DNA of 64,000 nt from Minisyncoccia bacterium (GCA_049274895.1 JBASTM010000005.1:9636-73635), one strand, 5' to 3'. Counted from the first letter of the stretch, positions 8,790 to 24,721 are shown. Numbers and translations: made by a program. The notes: a model not told the origin generated them from the sequence alone.

Positions 8790-9779
8790 CTAAGCGAAAG
8801 TAAATTCGTGGGGCTCGTCCTGATAAGTATAGTAAGTAACGTCCTTTTTATTTTCCTTGAGTTTGTTTACCAATTTGTCCGACCAGGCCACGGGCACCGA
8901 TTCGTCTTGGTCGCCGTGATGAATTAAAATGGGCGATTGGATTTTATCCAAAAAGTTTATAGCCGAGATATTGTTCCAAAACTCCAAATTGTCCTCGGGC
9001 GAGCCGTAAGTCTCCAATATCTTTTGAGCCAGCTCCGGCCGATGGTCACCCCATTTTTCAAAATTATCCCGCCAGTCAATTGATACCGGCGCCAACAACA
9101 CCACGGCTTTAACCAGATCAGGCCTCGTTACCAAAACATTGAGGCCAACCCCACCGCCCATGGAATGACCCAGCATGCTGATATTGTTTTTATCCAACTG
9201 AATCAAGCCGGAATTTTTGACGGCATAAATAGCATTGATTACATCTTCCAAATAACCCAGCCGGAACTCTAAATCAGCTTGGGAATCCTTACTGGAAAAA
9301 GCATGATTGCGGTAGTCGGAATGCACCACCGCGTAGCCCCGGCGGGCTAAATAATCCTGTTCACGCTTTAAGCCTCGGCCGTTGGTGTAAATAGCGGGGT
9401 CGATATAGCCGTGATTCAAAATCAAAACCGGCCAAGGCCCGGGGCCGTGAGGCAGGTTCATAATACCCGATATGGTTAAGTTGCCGCTTTTATAGGTAAT
9501 AAAATAACGGGTATAAGCTTCGTTTTGAGCGAGTATTTGCCCAAGTTTCAATTCCCGCCCATCGTATTCTTTGGCGGCATAAGCGGGCAGCGAAACCGGA
9601 TGTATTTGCGGCGGAGCCGAAGCGACCGAAGAAACATCGCCCATCACCTTACTGGGCCAGCCCTGGCCCCAAGCCAGCCAAGATAAAACCAGCGCCCCCG
9701 CGAGCGCCGACGATATAATTACATATTTGTATCGCAAAACCATAGCGTTTTCTATAATAACAAACAACACCACAATCAC
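8790..9779 (-). CDS. Alpha/beta-hydrolase (S9/dienelactone-hydrolase-like) with an N-terminal signal/anchor
   Basis: Nucleophile elbow GHSMGG, a downstream Asp and His, and a hydrophobic N-terminal segment. Confidence 0.7.
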   Translation of the reverse strand: MIVVLFVIIENAMVLRYKYVIISSALAGALVLSWLAWGQGWPSKVMGDVSSVASAPPQIHPVSLPAYAAKEYDGRELKLGQILAQNEAYTRYFITYKSGNLTISGIMNLPHGPGPWPVLILNHGYIDPAIYTNGRGLKREQDYLARRGYAVVHSDYRNHAFSSKDSQADLEFRLGYLEDVINAIYAVKNSGLIQLDKNNISMLGHSMGGGVGLNVLVTRPDLVKAVVLLAPVSIDWRDNFEKWGDHRPELAQKILETYGSPEDNLEFWNNISAINFLDKIQSPILIHHGDQDESVPVAWSDKLVNKLKENKKDVTYYTYQDEPHEFTFA

Positions 9780-9834
9780 AACATCCTGACATCCTTAAGA
9801 ATGTTGGTATGTTATTCTGTTCTAGCTCACCTTC

Positions 9835-9878
9835 TTAATCCCCACACCGATTTCGTAGCCGGAATGATTCCAGGTTTT
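9835..9878. repeat. 44-bp direct repeat, copy 1 (ttaatccccacaccgatttcgtagccggaatgattccaggtttt). It duplicates the 3-prime end of ileS and is a putative att site.
   Basis: Identical base for base with 12359-12402. Confidence 0.9.
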
Positions 9879-10287
9879 ATATAGAGAAGGTTATTTTGTC
9901 TCCCTCTCGAAGAAGCTCGTATTCTGTCGGCGGATGGCCGTTGAGCGCCATCGCTAATCTGCCCGGCGGATACCGTTTTTGGATTTCGGGATAAGAAGTA
10001 AAAATACTATGTAAAAGAAAAACAAACGGCGCATTTTCACTCATCATAATTTTAATTTTTGTTTGCCCCGTGATTGCTTCCATAACTGGATCAAATTCAA
10101 TAAACACACTGACTGGTTTTAACATTTCTCTATCCATACACATATAATATAGTCTTTTAAGCATCCGGCAAAACAAAATCCCAACAAATTTGGAGCCTGA
10201 CTGCTTAATTGTGGATAACTTTCGGTTAATTTTCGGCATCATAAATGATAAAATTATATTATCATGCCTACTATAACCCCAAAGCAA
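9877..10287 (-). CDS. Hypothetical small protein (136 aa) in the island
   Basis: ORF in AT-rich DNA. The C-terminal half (...ALNGHPPTEYELLREGDKITFSI) looks loosely like a beta-grasp fold, but this is not diagnostic. Confidence 0.35.
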   Translation of the reverse strand: MLWGYSRHDNIILSFMMPKINRKLSTIKQSGSKFVGILFCRMLKRLYYMCMDREMLKPVSVFIEFDPVMEAITGQTKIKIMMSENAPFVFLLHSIFTSYPEIQKRYPPGRLAMALNGHPPTEYELLREGDKITFSI

Positions 10288-11325
10288 AAACAGGTTCTTG
10301 ATTTTACGTCCGCTTTCATAAAAAATGAGGGCTTTGCTCCTTCAATAAACGAGATAAAAAATAATCTAGGGCTCAAATCCGTTGCCACCATACATCAACA
10401 TCTTCAAGCTCTTGAAAAAAAAGGTTACATAAAAAGAGAAAAAAACCAAAAAAGACACCTGGAAATAGTCGCTGAAATACCGCTGGTTATTAAGCCAGAA
10501 AAAATCGCCGACCAGACTAAAAAATACGACGCCTTACCCTTAAACCAAATAATCTGCGGAGACGCTGTAGAAGAATTAAAAAAAATACCCGATAATTCAA
10601 TAGACTTAGTAGTAACCTCGCCTCCTTACGATGAAATTAGAAAATATAATGGCTTTAGTTTTGATCTACACAAAACAGGAATGGAATTATTTAGAATACT
10701 TAAAAATGGCGGGGTGGCAGCTATGGTTATACAGGATCAAACCAAAAGTTTTGCAAAAACCCTGACATCTTTTAGAACAATCGTAGATTGGGTAGACAAT
10801 ATAGGTTTTCGGCTATTTGAAAACGTAATTTATAGGAAATACGGCACTGAAGGAGCGTGGTGGAAACACAGATTTAGAGTGGACCACGAATATATGCCTA
10901 TTTTTATTAAAGGTGAAAGGCCTCAATATTTTAATAAAGAACCATTAAAAGTGCCGTCAAAACATGGTGGAAAAGTGATGACTGGAAGTGGTAATAGAAG
11001 AACGGATGGTAAGACAACAAAAACCGTCACGAGGATCATAAACCAAATGAAGTGCAGAGGAACTATTTGGGATTACTTAAACGCTGGAGATAAAAACCCA
11101 CTAAAAAGAAAACATCCCGCCGTCTTTCCAGATAAAATACCTTTTGATTTTATCCAATGTTTTTGTCCTCCAAACGGTATTGTTTTAGATCCATTCATCG
11201 GCAGCGGATCAACCTCTGTATCAGCTAAAAAATTAAATAGAAACTTTATAGGAATCGATTTATCAAAAGAATACTGTGATTTAGCTCAAAAAAGGTTGGG
11301 TGAGACGCTTATTACGCTTTTATAG
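10264..11325 (+). CDS. DNA methyltransferase (beta-class N6-adenine/N4-cytosine type, SPPY motif) with an N-terminal LexA-like winged-HTH
   Basis: Motif IV (VVTSPPYD) precedes motif I (LDPFIGSGSTSV), which is the beta-class order. The N-terminus (VATIHQHLQALEKKGYIKRE) looks like a wHTH. Confidence 0.8.
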   Translation: MPTITPKQKQVLDFTSAFIKNEGFAPSINEIKNNLGLKSVATIHQHLQALEKKGYIKREKNQKRHLEIVAEIPLVIKPEKIADQTKKYDALPLNQIICGDAVEELKKIPDNSIDLVVTSPPYDEIRKYNGFSFDLHKTGMELFRILKNGGVAAMVIQDQTKSFAKTLTSFRTIVDWVDNIGFRLFENVIYRKYGTEGAWWKHRFRVDHEYMPIFIKGERPQYFNKEPLKVPSKHGGKVMTGSGNRRTDGKTTKTVTRIINQMKCRGTIWDYLNAGDKNPLKRKHPAVFPDKIPFDFIQCFCPPNGIVLDPFIGSGSTSVSAKKLNRNFIGIDLSKEYCDLAQKRLGETLITLL

Positions 11326-12342
11326 CTAATATAGCTTGTCTGGTTTTTCCAATGTATATTCAATATTTTGACCAGTTGTCATTGCCCAAGTAAGTGGTTT
11401 CTTAGACATTAGTTCCTCAAAGTTTTTATTATTCAAACTGATTCTGCTACCAGCAAAATCGCCCTTAGTAAATTTATACAAAACTAAGTCTGACCAACTC
11501 CATAGATCTTCAATATACTGCCAATCGGTAAGCGTAGATAACAGCTCAATAAATTTTTCCGATCTTTCTTTTGCTTCTGGCTTAATATCATAAAAAGAAC
11601 CACGCTTTATAATATTTGTCGGGTAACCATCCGTTTCTGATATTCTCAATCTGTCCCCTCTTTCACCTGCAACACTGATAATATCTCTTTTTTTGAAAAA
11701 ATCGTCCATTGCTTTCATAAGAGAAAAGACACTATATTTTTCATTTTCAAAAATATACTTAAGTGGACTATTGTTTTCATTAGCCATTAGATAATTTAAC
11801 CAATTCAAAACATTTTCCGGATACTTAAATAAAACGTTGAAGGTTCCATCAGTAAAAAGTAAAGGACATATAGCAGACTCGGGTATTATAATCTTCTTGC
11901 TCGAGCCAACTATACCAATCAATAAATGTATTGTAGCTAAAGGATATTTCAGACGAAACTCTCTATAACCATCATAATTCCTTAAATTATTGGGCTGGAT
12001 ACAGTTTTTATAGTTATCCCAGTTTATCGGTTTCTTATTCTTATTATATTGAACCATGTGATGGCCAACACTTCTTATTTCTTTCCTAAAGACCTCCATA
12101 TCTAAAAACACACAATCACTAGCGGAAACATTCTTTTTTAACAACATCACTTTACCATCGTAAAAACCTTTTATTTTCCATCCTAAAAAATTACTCATAA
12201 ATAACCCACAGAGTAAACCATCACTATCTGGACTCAGAATACAATTATGATCATCCTCAATAATCCAAGGAAAATTTTTTATAATCTCTTTGTAATCAAT
12301 TTGCTCTGATTTATTCTCTAACAACTCCTGTATTTTTGACAT
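11326..12342 (-). CDS. Hypothetical protein (338 aa), convergent with the methyltransferase. It is a candidate restriction endonuclease or defense effector by position only.
   Basis: Large AT-rich ORF with no recognisable motifs; the only evidence is genomic context next to the MTase. Confidence 0.35.
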   Translation of the reverse strand: MSKIQELLENKSEQIDYKEIIKNFPWIIEDDHNCILSPDSDGLLCGLFMSNFLGWKIKGFYDGKVMLLKKNVSASDCVFLDMEVFRKEIRSVGHHMVQYNKNKKPINWDNYKNCIQPNNLRNYDGYREFRLKYPLATIHLLIGIVGSSKKIIIPESAICPLLFTDGTFNVLFKYPENVLNWLNYLMANENNSPLKYIFENEKYSVFSLMKAMDDFFKKRDIISVAGERGDRLRISETDGYPTNIIKRGSFYDIKPEAKERSEKFIELLSTLTDWQYIEDLWSWSDLVLYKFTKGDFAGSRISLNNKNFEELMSKKPLTWAMTTGQNIEYTLEKPDKLY

Positions 12343-12348
12343 ATCGCT

Positions 12349-15300
12349 CTAGACCTTTTTAATCCCCACACCGATTTCGTAGCCGGAATGATTCCAGGTT
12401 TTGTGGACCAGAAAATTGTCGTTCTCGGCAATACCAAAATGGATTTGACTGGAACGGGTTTCGGATTTGATAACCTGCTCCCAACGGGAAAGAAACTCTT
12501 GAAAGTTCTGGTTTTGGCGGATGTCGTAATACAAAATTATTTTATCTTCGGGCGTTAAGCCGGCCTCTTTGCGCATATCGTTGATGTTGCGCGTCAGTTC
12601 GCGCACCAAACCCTCTTCTTTCAGCTCGGCGGTGAGTTCGGTATCCAGAACCACTGTGTCTTTGGCTATTTTGCGGTCGGCCAGAACTTTTTTAACATTC
12701 AATTCCGAAGCCACCAAATACAAAACGTCCCCAATCAAATTGTAATCCGCAGGTGAAAGATATAAGGCGTTTAAGGGCTGGCGGACTCTGATGCCGGTTC
12801 TAGCCCGCTCGGCCAGGCCCAAAGCCACAAGTTCGCGGGCTTTATCCATCACCCGCATTATTTCCGATTTCTTAGCCGACTTTGACGCCTTGGGCCAACT
12901 CTCCAAATGAACAGATTCTAAGTTACAAGTTACAGGTTTTAAGTTCTTGAGATTTTGATAAAGCCATTCGGCCAAAAACGGCGTGAACGGTGAGAGTAAA
13001 ATCGAGACACGTCTTAAAACCTCCGCCAAGGTTCGTTGGGCGGCCAGTTTTTCTCCGTCCATATTTTGTTTTTGAAACTTGCGTCTGGACCTGCGGATAT
13101 ACCAATTGGAAAGTTCATCCACAAATTCCTCAATGTCCCGCGCGGCCGAAGTTACACTGTAAGCATCAAGATGCTTAGCCGCGTCTGATTCCAAATCTGC
13201 CAAGCGCTCCAAAATCCAGCTGTCTAAAATATCCGGCCGGGCGGCCAGCGAGGCCGGAGCGTCGTCATAATAAGTTTCCAAAAAGAGATAGGAGTTAACT
13301 AGAGTATCAACAAAGCGGCGTTTTTTGGTCTCAAGGTCGCGCAGATTAAAAAGTTTGTTGTCGCCGGGCGTGTTTACGGTATAAAAATACCAGCGCATCA
13401 CGTCAAAACCGACTTTCTCGCCTACCAGCCACGGATCCACCATGTTGCCTTTAGATTTAGACATCTTTTCACCCTTATCATCCAGAACATGGTTTAAGCT
13501 GATGACATTCTTAAAAGGCGCGCCTTGGCCCAAGGCGGTAGCTACAGCCACAAGCGTGTAAAACCAGCCGCGGGTTTGATCTATAGCTTCACAAATGTAA
13601 TCCGCCGGGAAAAGATTTTTGGAAGCCCAGGGCATCGCTCCCGAATCAAACCAGACATCTATAAGATCCTTGACGCGCTCCATCCTGGACGAACATTGGG
13701 GACACTTGAGAAAAACAGCATCCACATACGGCCGATGTAGATCAAGATTGCCTTCAGCATCGTAAGGCCAGTTGTTGATTTTGAACTCGGTAAATTCGGC
13801 CGTGTCCAAAACCAGTTTGGATTTTTTCACGGCCGATTGGTAAGCGAGTTCAGTTTCGTCAGAACCGTATATCCCGCCCGAAGTTTGGATCAAAAACAAA
13901 GGGTCCATATGGCTAACCACGATAATTTTTTTACCCGGATGCTTATGGGAAACATCGGCCGTAAAATCACGCACCCTGCGGGCCACGTCCAACCACGACT
14001 CCCCCTGCGGCGGTGAGTGCACAAATCTGTCTTTGAAAGAACTGAAATAGTTACGGTAGGCCTCAACCGCTTGTCCGCTAAACTGACCGGTGTCTATTTC
14101 GCGCAAGCGCGGATCAAAAATTATGTTTTTTGTTTTAAGCTCATCAGCCACAATCTGCGCCGTCTCCCGGGCGCGCAGCAGGTCCGATGAATACACCGCC
14201 GTTGCTTTCTCTTTACCCAGACCCAACTTAATTTTCTTGGCTGCCGCTTCAACCTGCTTGCGGCCGCGCTCGGTCAGCGGATTCAATTTCTGTTCGGGAT
14301 AAGAACTGCAAAAACCTTTAAGATTGGACTCGGCCTCGCCGTGGCGCATTAAAATCAAAGTGGCCGGCGCATCGGTGCGGTTTTTATTCAAATCGTCCAA
14401 CGATCCAGCCACCAACCGGTGATCACATTTCCGGCATTCCCAAACCGGCAAGGGCGTGCCCCAGTAACGCTCGCGGCTGACGGCCCAATCTTTTACCTCG
14501 CGCAGCCACTCACCAAACCGGCCTTCTTTTAAGTGTTCCGGCACCCAATTTATTTTCTGATTATTTTTAATAAGCTCACGCCTTAAAGCCGACATTTTTA
14601 TAAACCAGCTCTCCTTGGCGTAATAAATTAAGGGCGATTGGCAACGCCAACAGAAAGGGTATTCGTGGCTGTAATCGGCTTCGTTAAAAAGCAAATTCTG
14701 TTTTTTTAAGTAAAATAGAATCGCTTTTTCCGTTAGCATGTCTTTCCGGCCCTCGCTGACAACAGGCAAACCGGCCACGATGGGAACTGATTTTATAAAC
14801 ACACCTTCGCGATCCACGGTGTGAAACTTAGGCAAACCGTGCCGCGCACCCAATTCAAAATCATCCGCGCCGTACATTACCGCGGTGTGGACTAGGCCCG
14901 TGCCTTCTTGGGTGCTTACAAAATCGGCGGGATAGACCTTATAAGATTGTGGCGACACCAACTCTTTGATCTTAAAAAGTGGTTCATACGACAACTTAGC
15001 CACTTCACTGGCTTTTAGATCTTTGATAATTTTGTAATCGCGATTGCCAAAAACTTTAGCCGCCAAATCTTTGGCTAAAATATATTTCTCGCCGTCCGAT
15101 TCCACCTCTACATAGTTGATTTTGGAGCCGACGGCCAAAGCCACGTTGCCCGGCAAAGTCCAGGGCGTGGTCGTCCAGGCCAAAAGATAAGTATCGGCTA
15201 AGCCCTTGACTTTGAACTTTACGGTAACTGATTTGTCGGTGACGGTTTCGTAGCCCTGAGCCACTTCGTGGCTGGAAATGGGCGTGCCACAGCGCACGCA

Positions 15301-15828
15301 AAAAGGCACAATTTTGTAATCTTTGACCAAAAGTTTCTTGTCCCAAAATTTTTTAATGATGCTCCAAACGCTTTCAATATACTGCGGTTCGTAGGTGATG
15401 TAGGGGTTTTTGAGATCCAGCCAAAAACCCATCCGGCGCGTCAGTTTTTCCCATTCGTCTTTATACTGCCACACTGATTTCCGGCATGCCTCGTTAAACT
15501 TGGCGATGCCGTATTTTTCTACTTCTTTTTTGTTCTTGAGACCCAACTTTTTCTCCACCTCAATTTCCACCGGCAGGCCGTGGGTATCCCAGCCGGCCCG
15601 GCGCGCCACGTAATACCCCTTCATGGTTTGATAACGGCAGATAATGTCCTTAAAAGCTCGCGCCAAAACATGGTGGATGCCGGGCCGGCCGTTAGCTGTG
15701 GGCGGGCCTTCGTAAAACACAAAAGCATGGCCTTTGGCTGTGGCCGCCAAAGACTTTTCAAAAATATCATTATCCTCCCAAAACTTGAGAGTTTTTTCTT
15801 CTTCTTTGATTAAATCAACCTGGCGCAT
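12349..15828 (-). CDS. ileS: Isoleucine--tRNA ligase with an inserted histidine-phosphatase (PGAM-like) domain
   Basis: HIGH-region PPTANGRPGIHHVLARAFKD, WAVSRERYWGTPLP, and KMSKS (KMSKSKGN). It also carries an internal ~200-aa segment with LILMRHGEAESN...LTERGRKQ...VVSHMDP motifs, which is foreign to IleRS. Confidence 0.9.
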   Translation of the reverse strand: MRQVDLIKEEEKTLKFWEDNDIFEKSLAATAKGHAFVFYEGPPTANGRPGIHHVLARAFKDIICRYQTMKGYYVARRAGWDTHGLPVEIEVEKKLGLKNKKEVEKYGIAKFNEACRKSVWQYKDEWEKLTRRMGFWLDLKNPYITYEPQYIESVWSIIKKFWDKKLLVKDYKIVPFCVRCGTPISSHEVAQGYETVTDKSVTVKFKVKGLADTYLLAWTTTPWTLPGNVALAVGSKINYVEVESDGEKYILAKDLAAKVFGNRDYKIIKDLKASEVAKLSYEPLFKIKELVSPQSYKVYPADFVSTQEGTGLVHTAVMYGADDFELGARHGLPKFHTVDREGVFIKSVPIVAGLPVVSEGRKDMLTEKAILFYLKKQNLLFNEADYSHEYPFCWRCQSPLIYYAKESWFIKMSALRRELIKNNQKINWVPEHLKEGRFGEWLREVKDWAVSRERYWGTPLPVWECRKCDHRLVAGSLDDLNKNRTDAPATLILMRHGEAESNLKGFCSSYPEQKLNPLTERGRKQVEAAAKKIKLGLGKEKATAVYSSDLLRARETAQIVADELKTKNIIFDPRLREIDTGQFSGQAVEAYRNYFSSFKDRFVHSPPQGESWLDVARRVRDFTADVSHKHPGKKIIVVSHMDPLFLIQTSGGIYGSDETELAYQSAVKKSKLVLDTAEFTEFKINNWPYDAEGNLDLHRPYVDAVFLKCPQCSSRMERVKDLIDVWFDSGAMPWASKNLFPADYICEAIDQTRGWFYTLVAVATALGQGAPFKNVISLNHVLDDKGEKMSKSKGNMVDPWLVGEKVGFDVMRWYFYTVNTPGDNKLFNLRDLETKKRRFVDTLVNSYLFLETYYDDAPASLAARPDILDSWILERLADLESDAAKHLDAYSVTSAARDIEEFVDELSNWYIRRSRRKFQKQNMDGEKLAAQRTLAEVLRRVSILLSPFTPFLAEWLYQNLKNLKPVTCNLESVHLESWPKASKSAKKSEIMRVMDKARELVALGLAERARTGIRVRQPLNALYLSPADYNLIGDVLYLVASELNVKKVLADRKIAKDTVVLDTELTAELKEEGLVRELTRNINDMRKEAGLTPEDKIILYYDIRQNQNFQEFLSRWEQVIKSETRSSQIHFGIAENDNFLVHKTWNHSGYEIGVGIKKV
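12359..12402. repeat. 44-bp direct repeat, copy 2, lying inside the 3-prime end of ileS
   Basis: Identical to 9835-9878. On the minus strand it encodes ...KTWNHSGYEIGVGIK of IleRS. Confidence 0.9.
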
Positions 15829-16509: not shown

Positions 16510-16953
16510 ATGGAAGCTAAAATCAACAAAAAGGCGTTTTTTAATTATGAAATCCTGGAGAAGTTCGAGGCCGGTTTAGTGCTGCTTGGTTCGGAGGTTA
16601 AATCCATAAAAAACAGCCATTACAGTTTGCAGGGCGCTTACGTGACCCTCCAAAACGAAGAGGCCTGGCTGGTGCGCGCCACCATCGCCCCCTACCAACC
16701 CAAAAATATGAATACGGCTTATAACCCCGAACGGCCGAGAAAGCTGTTGTTAAATAAAAAGGAACTTAAATACCTCCAAGGCAAAACCAAAGAACGGGGG
16801 TTGACTATTGTGCCGTTAAAAGTCTATAATAAGCACGGTCAAATAAAATTGGAAATCGGTTTGGCCAAAGGCAAAACCAAGTCAGATAAACGGGAAGTTC
16901 TTAAAAAACGCATTGCCGATCGAGAGATCCAAAGAGAAATAAGAAATAAATAG
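16510..16953 (+). CDS. smpB: SsrA-binding protein SmpB
   Basis: N-terminal NKKAFFNYEILEKFEAGLVLLGSEVKSIK and a basic C-terminal tail typical of SmpB. Confidence 0.9.
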   Translation: MEAKINKKAFFNYEILEKFEAGLVLLGSEVKSIKNSHYSLQGAYVTLQNEEAWLVRATIAPYQPKNMNTAYNPERPRKLLLNKKELKYLQGKTKERGLTIVPLKVYNKHGQIKLEIGLAKGKTKSDKREVLKKRIADREIQREIRNK

Positions 16954-17039
16954 TTTACTATATGGGCGTAAGCCCAGTAGTGAACTTTTGACCTTGAACT
17001 TTTCTTCGGCTGGGCCGAAGTTTCAAAAGTTCTACTACT

Positions 17040-17397
17040 GGGGATGTAACGGCTTCGTCAAGAAGCGTATTGCTTTGGATTCGAGGTTGAGGTTGACCAC
17101 AAACTCATAAAACTGGTCGAAAACAATAAGTGCAAACTTATTTAACGCTAAACCAGCGTTTGCTGTAGCTTAAAAACTTCAGCCATCGTTCCGTCCCCGC
17201 CCGAAGGGATGGAAACGGTGCCAACTTTTCGGGCCGCTCTTTCAAACCAGGCGGGTTTGGAAGCTAAGACAATCGCCGAAAGTTCAACTTTTTTGGCCGT
17301 CCTTTAAGGGTTGGACTTAAAACAAGGGCGGTTAGACTTCGTAAAAATCCTGGCAAGAAACTTTTTGCACGCGGGTTCAACTCCCGCCATCTCCACC
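17040..17397 (+). ncRNA. ssrA: tmRNA (ssrA), with predicted tag peptide ANLFNAKPAFAVA
   Basis: The 5-prime end GGGGATG...GGATTCGAGG and the 3-prime tRNA-like end GCGGGTTCAACTCCCGCCATCTCCACC are complementary across an acceptor stem. There is an internal frame gca aac tta ttt aac gct aaa cca gcg ttt gct gta gct taa. The gene sits immediately downstream of smpB. Confidence 0.8.
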
Positions 17398-17496
17398 CCG
17401 TAAAGCAAAATATGCAGCATATTTTGCCACGGGGTAGGCACGTGATAAAATTTGAAAAATTTTTCAAATTTTATTTTACGTGCCACCTCGTAAAAC

Positions 17497-23674: not shown

Positions 23675-24721
23675 TTGTGGATAATGGGGTTTTGGATTGA
23701 CTTGGTTGGAGAGACTATGCTTGACTATCAAAATCAACAGTTCCTTAACATAAGGAGATCAGCAAGCATGGATAGACATATATCGTACGCCAGGGTTGGA
23801 TTTTTGGCGGAAGAATTACAAATTAGATCAGGTTTAAGAGTGCTGCGGACGGCCAGGGGCAACGACCCGGGCAATAAGGGATTCTGGGAAGAAATAGCCG
23901 ATCCGTCGGGCAGAATTCTCCGGCTGCGCCGAGTCTCAAAATCCAATGATCCGGCTACCACAGAAATCTTCAATCTCTTGTGCAGGACTTTTTCTGAAGA
24001 CGAGGCCGATACTCTCGAAACCATACAAAGTGACGTCACGGATCCGGATGTAGCCTTCTTCGTAATTCAAGAGAAAAACAACCCCAGAGTTCTGGCGCTG
24101 ATCAATGTCTATGTTCTGCCTGTCGGACCATCAGGCCTGCAGCTGTTTATTGGCTATGTGGTTACGGACGATACCGAAAGGGACAAGAGCCTAGCCTCCC
24201 GGCTGTACCGGGCGGCCTGTCTCTTTTTTATGCGCCGATCAGAGATAAAGGCGCGAGAGGCCTACGGCATTGTGGGAGAGATGGTTGAGACAGTGGAAGA
24301 GTTTTTCCTTAAGGTCGGCGGCTGCCGAAGACTGTATGTAGAAACCCCGGAAAGAATTTTGGAGATCCCCTACATTCAGCCGCCGCTGGATTTTGACAAA
24401 AGAACCGGCCGTCCCCTTAAAAATCCGGTTCCGGAACATTTGATGCTACGTCTGGTAGACTACGGCGATGAGCTTTCAGTAGAAGATGTATTGAAAATAG
24501 TCTGGAGCATTTACGAAAGTTACTTCTTTGAGGAAGACGACTTTGAAAGCGAAAAGGCCTATCACAGGCATTGCGCAGTAATGTCCGAGCTATTTGAAAA
24601 TCTAAAGAGGTCTCTACCTGATCCATCAAGCCGGGTGTTTATGATGAATCACGTCATACGGCAAGGTCTGGCCAGAGATCTGAAAAATGCCGGCCGAAAG
24701 CTGGTGGAAGTTACAACGTAG
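23675..24721 (+). CDS. Hypothetical protein (348 aa), possibly a GNAT-like fold
   Basis: ORF with mildly elevated GC and no strong motif. Confidence 0.35.
   Translation: MWIMGFWIDLVGETMLDYQNQQFLNIRRSASMDRHISYARVGFLAEELQIRSGLRVLRTARGNDPGNKGFWEEIADPSGRILRLRRVSKSNDPATTEIFNLLCRTFSEDEADTLETIQSDVTDPDVAFFVIQEKNNPRVLALINVYVLPVGPSGLQLFIGYVVTDDTERDKSLASRLYRAACLFFMRRSEIKAREAYGIVGEMVETVEEFFLKVGGCRRLYVETPERILEIPYIQPPLDFDKRTGRPLKNPVPEHLMLRLVDYGDELSVEDVLKIVWSIYESYFFEEDDFESEKAYHRHCAVMSELFENLKRSLPDPSSRVFMMNHVIRQGLARDLKNAGRKLVEVTT

Follow-up and report, generated by a model that had tools for sequence, protein, structure and literature searches.

A 64,000-nucleotide stretch of DNA from a Minisyncoccia bacterium (Patescibacteria; contig of a metagenome-assembled genome, or MAG; GCA_049274895.1 JBASTM010000005.1:9636-73635; hereafter the window) carries, directly downstream of the gene ileS, an AT-rich island of three genes bracketed by two copies of a direct repeat. 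Moving away from ileS (12349..15828, minus strand, recognised by Pfam), the first gene encodes a 338-aa protein (WAP55_00600, 11326..12342, minus strand); it starts 6 nt past the ileS stop and abuts, tail to tail, a gene for a 353-aa DNA methyltransferase with an N-terminal LexA-type winged helix (10264..11325, plus strand). A divergent promoter/operator region (10138..10263) then separates the methylase from an 86-aa gene (WAP55_00590, 9877..10137, minus strand). Genes for a hydrolase, MsrB, PMT and RecO lie on one side of the island, and SmpB and tmRNA on the other. We propose, at a probability of roughly 0.6, that 9879-12348 is a mobile Type II-like restriction-modification (R-M) cassette in a restriction hot spot downstream of ileS, with the 338-aa protein as its candidate restriction endonuclease.

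The repeat is a 44-mer with two exact copies, at 9835-9878 and 12359-12402, and no third copy in the window at up to 3 mismatches; two matches were obtained in 0/100 shuffles. Extended without gaps it reaches 50 nt at 49/50 identity (9829-9878 versus 12353-12402). The insert between the copies measures 2.48 kb, and GC is 0.32-0.36 across 10000-12400 versus 0.46-0.50 in the flanks. The original prediction had reported the two 44-mer copies, the second at the coding end of ileS, and the AT-rich island, all of which proved real by copy search, shuffles, open reading frames (ORFs) and GC. Its remark that there is no integrase also holds: ORF and Pfam scans found no recombinase, integrase or transposase in the island or its flanking genes. 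No Rfam family was found in the island.

The two copies do not play the same role. The proximal copy (12353..12402, minus strand) supplies the final 50 nt of ileS as it now stands, its 3' coding end, and is read as ...KTWNHSGYEIGVGIKKV, so that the protein now ends in ...GVGIKKV. The distal copy continues in the ileS frame (...KTWNHSGYEIGVGIKKVS, i.e. ...GIKKVS) to a stop at 9822-9824, and for this reason 9822..9878 (minus strand) is best read as a displaced ileS 3' end that includes the distal copy at 9829-9878, more than as a mere repeat. One extra codon before the stop (...KKVN*) is also found in an island-free relative (L010), and directly 3' of the displaced stop lies an imperfect hairpin (9772..9820, minus strand; RNA fold -14.1 kcal/mol, weak z-score -1.5; single copy in the window), which is probably the original ileS terminator and now sits upstream of the hydrolase gene. 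Because of this shared codon and the hairpin that follows the stop, the distal copy looks like the original end of ileS, and the proximal end like a replacement.

The methylase was identified by Pfam and PADLOC matches. Residues 1-64 match LexA_DNA_bind (1.4e-19) and residues 113-343 match N6_N4_Mtase (2.4e-36), and the motifs follow the beta-class order, TSPPY at about 120-124 and then DPFIGSGST (FxGxG) at about 309-317; the LexA-type winged helix and beta-class SPPY methylase of the original prediction are thus confirmed. The lexA model TIGR00498 matches residues 1-70 at 6e-18, under the whole-protein cut-off, and PADLOC places the protein among Type II and orphan methylases, the best match being an 'orphan methyltransferase' model. 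The enzyme would methylate a specific DNA site, and the SPPY motif suggests N4-cytosine methylation.

More than 110 of the best 120 homologues of the methylase are fusions of about 480 aa in which LexA_DNA_bind, Peptidase_S24 and N6_N4_Mtase domains are joined; the named ones among these 120 are nearly all from Patescibacteria, and their NCBI name is 'transcriptional repressor LexA'. In the relatives examined (L006-8, L102 and L104) the LexA part is complete, with the IPLLG-x-IAAG cleavage region, the G-x-SM serine, the TLKK lysine and a full-length S24 profile match. In the window methylase the S24 peptidase domain is absent, both in the Pfam scan and in an alignment to the L104 protein, where the head and the methylase part match and residues ~71-200 (the S24 domain) are missing. 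Judged from these alignments, the window methylase is a derivative of the LexA-S24-methylase fusions common in Patescibacteria, from which S24 has been deleted. With the LexA repressor it shares the winged-helix DNA-binding domain, without the S24 peptidase domain. The full head of most relatives would make methylase expression inducible by DNA damage; in the window, the S24 domain has been lost. At least three different types of methylase and nuclease accompany such fusions. At L104:5031-6172, a small GIY-YIG protein and a TIR protein of ThsB-like type are encoded next to another LexA-S24-methylase cassette, in what looks like a defence cluster.

The association of this methylase with the 338-aa protein extends far beyond the window. 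A homologue of the 338-aa protein is convergent with an N6_N4 methylase, abutting or slightly overlapping it, in 10/10 distinct contexts examined in bacteria and archaea (the window; L001/L002; L004, from an Aenigmarchaeota; L090; L097/98; L099; L100; L102; L104; L106), and at least 14 contigs are common to the two homologue lists. Outside Patescibacteria the methylase partner is 249-280 aa long and has no LexA head. In one 623-aa polypeptide (P0226), an N6_N4_Mtase domain (20-255) precedes a domain (308-500) that corresponds to the N-terminal one of the 338-aa family; by its domain order, this protein is a fused methylase-nuclease form of the system. In two unrelated genomes, a DDE transposase (IS240/IS6-like) directly adjoins the pair (L097/L098:5822-6979 and L100:5885-6784), which is consistent with its transposon-assisted spread. 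In L006/L007 a recognised restriction enzyme, RE_BsaWI, takes the same position and orientation as the 338-aa gene.

This layout resembles that of Type II R-M systems with convergent restriction (R) and modification (M) genes, such as BamHI and PvuII, whose methylases are of the beta-class N4-cytosine SPPY/SPPF type. The likeness lies in the tail-to-tail pair, the beta-class SPPY methylase, the horizontal spread, the AT-richness relative to the host and, in some genomes, the neighbouring transposases. The differences are that R looks DHH-like here and matches none of the restriction folds known to us, and that a LexA head on M replaces the separate C protein.

The 338-aa protein belongs to a large family. 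A word-indexed search returned more than 940 homologues, of which the best 120 are 56-86% identical, of near-equal length and all 'hypothetical'; their hosts are Patescibacteria, DPANN archaea, a Methanobacterium and a Planctomycetes MAG. Grouped at 50% identity, the members found by an exhaustive profile search fall into 521 clusters, for the most part from Patescibacteria and DPANN archaea, and none of the distant clusters carried a name in the source records. No match to the family was found by tblastn in PLSDB plasmids or INPHARED phages. The protein has no family match in Pfam, PADLOC, NCBIfam or PHROGs, so the statement of the original prediction that it bears no recognisable motif stands; a PHROG 'endolysin' match at E 0.022 was discarded as noise. 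Neither phmmer nor two profile searches found a sequence match in the PDB, and Pfam gave no match for any of 51 diverse family members at E up to 10.

The AlphaFold2 (AF2) model has a pLDDT (predicted local distance difference test) of 93.6 and its structural neighbours are DHH/RecJ phosphoesterases only; Foldseek against the PDB returned junk alignments only. In an alignment of the 51 members (20-55% identity), D41, D81 and H95 never vary, and conservation reaches at least 90% at D39 and D165. The conserved set, D39-x-D41, D81, G93-H94-H95 and D165, sits after successive strands in the model, in an order that presumably corresponds to DHH motifs I-IV (DxD, D, DHH, D). On this modelled fold and these residues, it is likely that the N-domain (~12-200) is a remote DHH-superfamily metal phosphoesterase. 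Compared with known members of that superfamily (RecJ, archaeal GAN/RecJ-Cdc45, NrnA, GdpP, PPX1, family II pyrophosphatase), the protein has no Pfam DHH match, no DHHA1 or DHHA2 and no GGGH, it has GHH in place of DHH, its partner is a methylase and its presumed substrate is double-stranded DNA. To our knowledge, the catalytic folds of restriction enzymes are PD-(D/E)XK, HNH, GIY-YIG, PLD and half-pipe, none of which it fits.

Many relatives share the N-terminal ~190 residues only (~12-200), and their C-termini differ. A constant catalytic domain joined to a variable C-terminal domain is the usual design of restriction enzymes, and this argues for a nuclease role. In the mechanism that we envision, the 338-aa protein would be a metal-dependent phosphodiesterase acting through a DHH/RecJ-like catalytic domain (D39, D41, D81, H94/H95, D165), and the variable C-terminal domain would recognise DNA.

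One can also imagine that the protein is not a restriction nuclease at all, the locus being made up of an orphan or regulatory methylase together with a DHH-like (oligo)nucleotide phosphoesterase or a non-catalytic DNA-binding partner. The characterised DHH enzymes are all exonucleases or nucleotide phosphodiesterases, according to the descriptions of the structural neighbours, the 338-aa protein matches no known restriction family, and the best PADLOC model of the methylase is an orphan one. However, a strict tail-to-tail pair that moves between bacteria and archaea, sometimes with transposases and at 56-86% identity across domains, speaks against such an arrangement, as do the fusion in P0226, the sharing of one slot with RE_BsaWI and DpnI-like enzymes and the restriction-enzyme design just described, and we regard it as unlikely. 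We therefore favour the 338-aa protein as the restriction nuclease of the R-M system, which we consider probable. The original prediction had suggested as much, naming the protein as a possible nuclease of an unusual R-M system, and the methylase pairing, the methylase fusion and the predicted fold now back that suggestion. No description of a DHH-type restriction enzyme turned up in a literature search. R.DraR1, met in a paper on an N4-cytosine R-M system, was considered as a relative and set aside, being a GIY-YIG enzyme and unrelated.

We compared relatives that share both this ileS and the order of genes on the distal side (YgjP, MsrA/B, PMT, RecO); ileS is the anchor gene, and it precedes a variable slot in L001, L006, L007, L008, L090, L091 and L010. 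The 338-aa family with a LexA-methylase follows ileS in the window, L001/2 and L106, and a 39%-identical family member with a LexA-methylase follows it in L090. In L006/7 the place is taken by an RE_BsaWI nuclease with a LexA-S24-N6_N4 methylase, in L008 by an unknown 352-aa protein with a LexA-S24-C5 methylase, and in L091/92 by a lone DpnI-like methyl-directed enzyme with no methylase (L091:2141-2608 and L092; Pfam DpnI 7e-11; PADLOC mREase_II). L010 has no island, and housekeeping genes follow directly. Wherever the slot is occupied, its first gene begins 4-6 nt past the ileS stop. On this comparison of gene content, restriction cassettes are allelic at the ileS slot, a hot spot where relatives have different ones or none. 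The idea that LexA and the 86-aa gene form a host framework into which cassettes insert was dropped, because L091 and L010 lack both and LexA-methylase pairs also occur at unrelated sites. As a separate observation, two gene pairs, each a reverse transcriptase (RVT_1) with bAvd, flank the ileS region of L006 (1-1207 and 11848-13398) and look like diversity-generating retroelements.

Alternative cassettes at one locus are familiar from DpnI/DpnII of Streptococcus pneumoniae. There, as here, one slot holds either a DpnI-like enzyme (L091/L092 in our case) or a methylase and nuclease cassette; the ileS slot differs in holding many more cassette types, and the targeting of GATC by the window cassette is a lead only.

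How, then, did the repeat arise? A site-specific integrative element, decayed by loss of its integrase gene, comes close to one of the two readings offered by the original prediction, the other being a compact defence islet; the 44-mer would be the att core (attP x ileS attB). Such elements are classically recognised by direct repeats at the 3' end of a gene whose replacement end the element supplies, and the unrelated R genes all begin 4-6 nt past the ileS stop. There is, in addition, an 11-mer, GTGGGGATTAA (Val-Gly-Ile-Lys codons; 12358-12368 and 9834-9844), which is nearly invariant at synonymous sites in 8 relatives and could mark the core. Against this, no integrase, recombinase or transposase was found in the island, its flanks or the related ileS-slot loci, the other occupied loci show no repeat, and the cassette also resides at unrelated sites without ileS. 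A decayed element is accordingly improbable, and its place is taken by the allelic hot spot, with its different R-M cassettes across relatives. The 11-mer deserves mention in its own right: with a single exception, the ileS ends compared (the window, L001, L006-8, L010 and L091) show no variation at its synonymous sites, and neighbouring codons vary freely. It may be constrained at the nucleotide level, for example as a recombination core.

The relative ages of cassette and repeat bear on the question. At the DNA level, the window and L106 are 85% identical in M, 84% in R and 84% in the hydrolase gene; the window and L001 are 82% identical in M, 82% in R, 75.5% in the hydrolase gene and ~80% in ileS. 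The R-M genes have diverged in step with the host genes and are thus old residents of the site, which led us to reject a recent transfer of R-M into the window. The repeat, by contrast, is young, since its copies are still identical (44/44) and, at the ~13 positions where L001 departs from the window's ileS, the non-coding distal copy agrees with the latter. L001 and L106 hold the same R-M at the same place with no repeat and no 86-aa gene, the hydrolase gene following 37-57 nt after the operator, and no ileS-end repeat was found in any other occupied ileS-slot locus. The repeat is therefore not the scar of the first arrival of the R-M genes, as had been supposed. The stretch from the operator to the 86-aa gene is homologous to L008, the gene itself being 85% identical.

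R-M insertion accompanied by a long duplication of the target was reportedly described by Nobusato in 2000. Insertion of R-M genes between direct repeats of more than 30 bp, without mobility genes, is a documented class of event (Furuta, Abe and Kobayashi 2010, PMC2853133), defined by R and M inside, an insert below 20 kb, a repeat above 30 bp and no mobility gene, with 46-bp duplications among the examples. With its 2.48-kb insert and 44-50-nt repeat, the window island falls within this definition and shares with that class the long repeats, the lack of a mobility gene and the allelic locus; the hot spot, for its part, agrees with 'allelic substitution of R-M systems' as treated in that paper. 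One could thus suppose that the repeat was made at the first insertion, by fill-in of staggered breaks 44-50 bp apart and with no ileS homology on the incoming DNA, and the similar length of the published 46-bp examples favours this. Yet past the perfect 44 nt the copies remain similar, and the proximal copy restores an in-frame Lys-Val-stop, both of which imply homology on the incoming DNA; moreover, R-M is old at the site and the repeat young, and relatives with the same R-M have no repeat. Such a duplication seems to us unlikely, if somewhat less so than a decayed element. The window differs from the documented class (PMC2853133) in a repeat much younger than the residence of R-M, in the look of a two-allele crossover and in its third gene.

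That look comes from the sequence just outside the 44 nt, where the copies are homologous but differ (AAA/AAG, GTC/GTG, stop versus Ser-stop), as fits a crossover between two alleles of the ileS end. On the simplest account of these alignments, a recent recombination at the 3' end of ileS left the repeat behind as its scar. Two alleles would have recombined within the population, one in which the terminator and the hydrolase gene came after ileS and one that brought an ileS end together with R, M and the 86-aa gene; the join would be homologous on the ileS side and illegitimate at the 86-aa stop (~3 nt of microhomology). A single crossover of a circularised copy would yield the same product. 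The predicted junctions are ileS, 44-mer, GAAGGTGAGCTAGAACAG for the attB-like form and 86-aa stop, 44-mer, AAAAAGGTCTAGAGCGATATG for the attP-like form.

Finally, the repeat could be an assembly artefact, a chimeric join of two strain variants; the contig belongs to a MAG, and alleles with and without the island are expected in such populations. But where the 86-aa stop meets ileS position -50, only ~3 nt are shared with the alternative path, and a k-mer graph needs reads containing that junction; final k-mers and reads are usually longer than the 44 nt of the repeat, and the 86-aa ORF ends exactly at its conserved length. We consider an artefact very improbable, and keep recombination between two ileS-end alleles as our account of the repeat.

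The third gene, with a stop codon that reaches into the first 2 nt of the repeat, had been taken for a 136-aa gene. Since NCBI annotates 86 aa and 11 homologues span 76-88 aa, the protein is almost certainly 86 aa long and the longer ORF an artefact of an upstream in-frame TTG; the intact N-termini of the homologues begin within a few residues of the same position, and the extra 50 codons run through the methylase promoter. The protein has a MoaD/ThiS-like beta-grasp fold, shared with the MoaD/ThiS/SAMP sulfur carriers and ubiquitin-like proteins, without their C-terminal Gly-Gly: this ending is found in 0/12 members, which close with ...F(S/F/Y/Q)(I/V) or a short non-Gly extension. It gave no Pfam ThiS match, and no E1-like, MoaE or ThiF partner was found nearby. 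Its homologues occur only beside LexA-methylase genes in the ileS slot (L006-8). The protein had also been cast as a possible accessory component of restriction; we found nothing that links this MoaD-like protein to restriction. The gene would be transcribed divergently from the methylase, out of the same control region. Its 3' half (9900-9980) has a GC of 0.59 in an 80-nt window, host-like or higher, versus ~0.33 for the island.

The control region between these two genes has promoter-like hexamers on both strands and very short leaders, and its methylase-proximal half is conserved in all related loci. Comparison of these loci brought out a 27-nt element, CCGAAAATTAACCGAAAGTTATCCACA (10210..10236, minus strand), composed of two direct repeats spaced 11 nt (CCGAAARTTAWC) plus GTTATCCACA, which overlaps the -35 of the promoter-like site before the methylase. 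The element is identical in L001-3, L006, L007 and L011 and has 1 mismatch each in L008 and L090; the LexA heads beside it are only ~50% identical between those two groups of loci. At the unrelated sites L102 and L104 the same layout precedes the LexA-methylase, two 11-nt-spaced repeats and then GTTATCCACA. In fact, GTTATCCACA (10210-10219 in the window, minus strand) lies 45-75 nt upstream of every LexA-methylase start seen (L001-3, L006, L007, L011, L090, L102-105). This 10-mer contains a perfect DnaA-box 9-mer and may be part of a LexA operator or a DnaA site.

From its position and conservation, the 27-nt element is the putative operator of the methylase's LexA head. The head would bind the element over its own promoter and repress the methylase, whose synthesis would run at full rate in a newly entered, naive cell and be held down from then on. 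To probe for a LexA regulon, we looked for further copies of the full repeat element in the window and found none; the 9-mer TTATCCACA alone has one other copy there, at 23676-23684. With no second full element and a single 9-mer recurrence, there is no sign of a wider regulon. The 338-aa gene, apparently without a promoter of its own, is probably read through from ileS, given its start 6 nt past the ileS stop and the lack of a terminator between the two genes in the window.

Methylases of the SsoII, EcoRII and MspI type carry a fused N-terminal helix-turn-helix domain and repress their own promoter. The window system resembles them in its DNA-binding head and the conserved site over the methylase promoter; here, instead, the head is a LexA-family winged helix, and most relatives have a full LexA with an Ala-Gly site and a Ser/Lys dyad, which implies RecA-dependent control. 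Our literature searches found no paper describing control of R-M by a LexA-headed methylase.

Avoided palindromes might betray the recognition site. In the window, TCGA occurs 42 times versus 175 expected and TTTAAA 9 times versus 73; L001 and L002 each have 0 copies of TTTAAA versus 16 expected. Most of the clade avoids TCGA, relatives without the cassette included; avoidance of TTTAAA is seen in the window and L001/2 only, not in L006-8, L010, L011 or L091. These patterns point to present or past restriction pressure of DraI-like (TTTAAA) and TaqI-like (TCGA) type. GATC is the most depleted 4-mer palindrome in 5/7 independent carrier loci (L004, L097, L099, L100, L102), with observed versus expected counts of, for example, 0 vs 23, 2 vs 26 and 9 vs 34. 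Its pooled observed/expected ratio is ~0.39 in carriers vs ~0.94 in non-carrier loci, a comparison confounded by phylogeny, and in the window it is mildly depleted (214 vs 267). GATC may be the recognition site and is offered as a lead.

Several points weigh against the explanation that we favour. Motif III of the 338-aa protein is GHH, not DHH (Asp replaced by Gly), its sequence has no DHHA1 GGGH motif, and neither PDB profile searches nor Pfam with the 51 members gave a hidden Markov model link to DHH. The DHH nucleases that we know of act as exonucleases, on short oligonucleotides or single strands, and none is a double-strand endonuclease. Nuclease activity, methylation motif and DNA binding are all inferred from sequence, structure prediction and gene context. 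Palindrome avoidance yields no site: TTTAAA and TCGA do not track the cassette, and GATC tracks the carriers but is weak in the window. As to the repeat, an empty site had been expected in relatives, and an island-free locus does exist (L010), but other genes lie there between ileS and the hydrolase gene, and no conspecific empty allele (ileS, terminator, hydrolase) was found among the related loci; the mechanism that made the repeat is indistinguishable from its alternatives. The closest relatives, L106 and L001, lack the 86-aa gene, so that the history needs at least two events.

Two features of the ileS side are recorded here. Just upstream of ileS, at 16510-17398, lie smpB and a tmRNA gene (Rfam 130 bits; tag ANLFNAKPAFAVA), an ordinary arrangement whose synteny is kept in L001 and L007. 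Residues 491-644 of IleRS form a complete histidine-phosphatase domain (PGAM-like, LILMRHGEAESN; Pfam His_Phos_1 2.4e-34), inserted between two CxxC pairs within the catalytic domain and kept in all clade relatives (L001, L006, L007). A literature search found no paper on an IleRS with such an insertion.

The island thus belongs to a known category, that of mobile Type II-like R-M cassettes in a hot spot, here flanked by a recombination-derived repeat. Three of its features appear undescribed, namely the DHH-like nuclease family, the LexA-fused methylases and the MoaD-like protein tied to the control region. More tentatively, and at somewhat less than even odds, we envision that the 338-aa family is a new catalytic class of restriction enzymes built on a DHH/RecJ-like domain, whose partner methylases in Patescibacteria, as with other R-M types, are fused to a complete, self-cleaving LexA, which would couple protective methylation to the response to DNA damage.

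Should the 338-aa protein be the nuclease, a catalytic fold so far unseen among restriction enzymes would be added to their repertoire, and this would be an unusual DHH-type enzyme, one that cuts double-stranded DNA in a sequence- and methylation-dependent manner. The family is large, compact and sharply conserved, which makes it easy to test and a possible source of new specificities. In bacteria with tiny genomes, the LexA-S24-methylase fusions suggest that protective methylation is directly tied to DNA damage. Allelic restriction cassettes, DpnI-like ones included, have in the ileS slot a clean natural example that can be traced in metagenomic populations. According to a 2026 preprint, genomes of the Candidate Phyla Radiation (CPR) hold many more recognisable methylases than restriction enzymes (bioRxiv 10.64898/2026.07.13.738296), and unrecognised nuclease families like this one would explain part of that excess.

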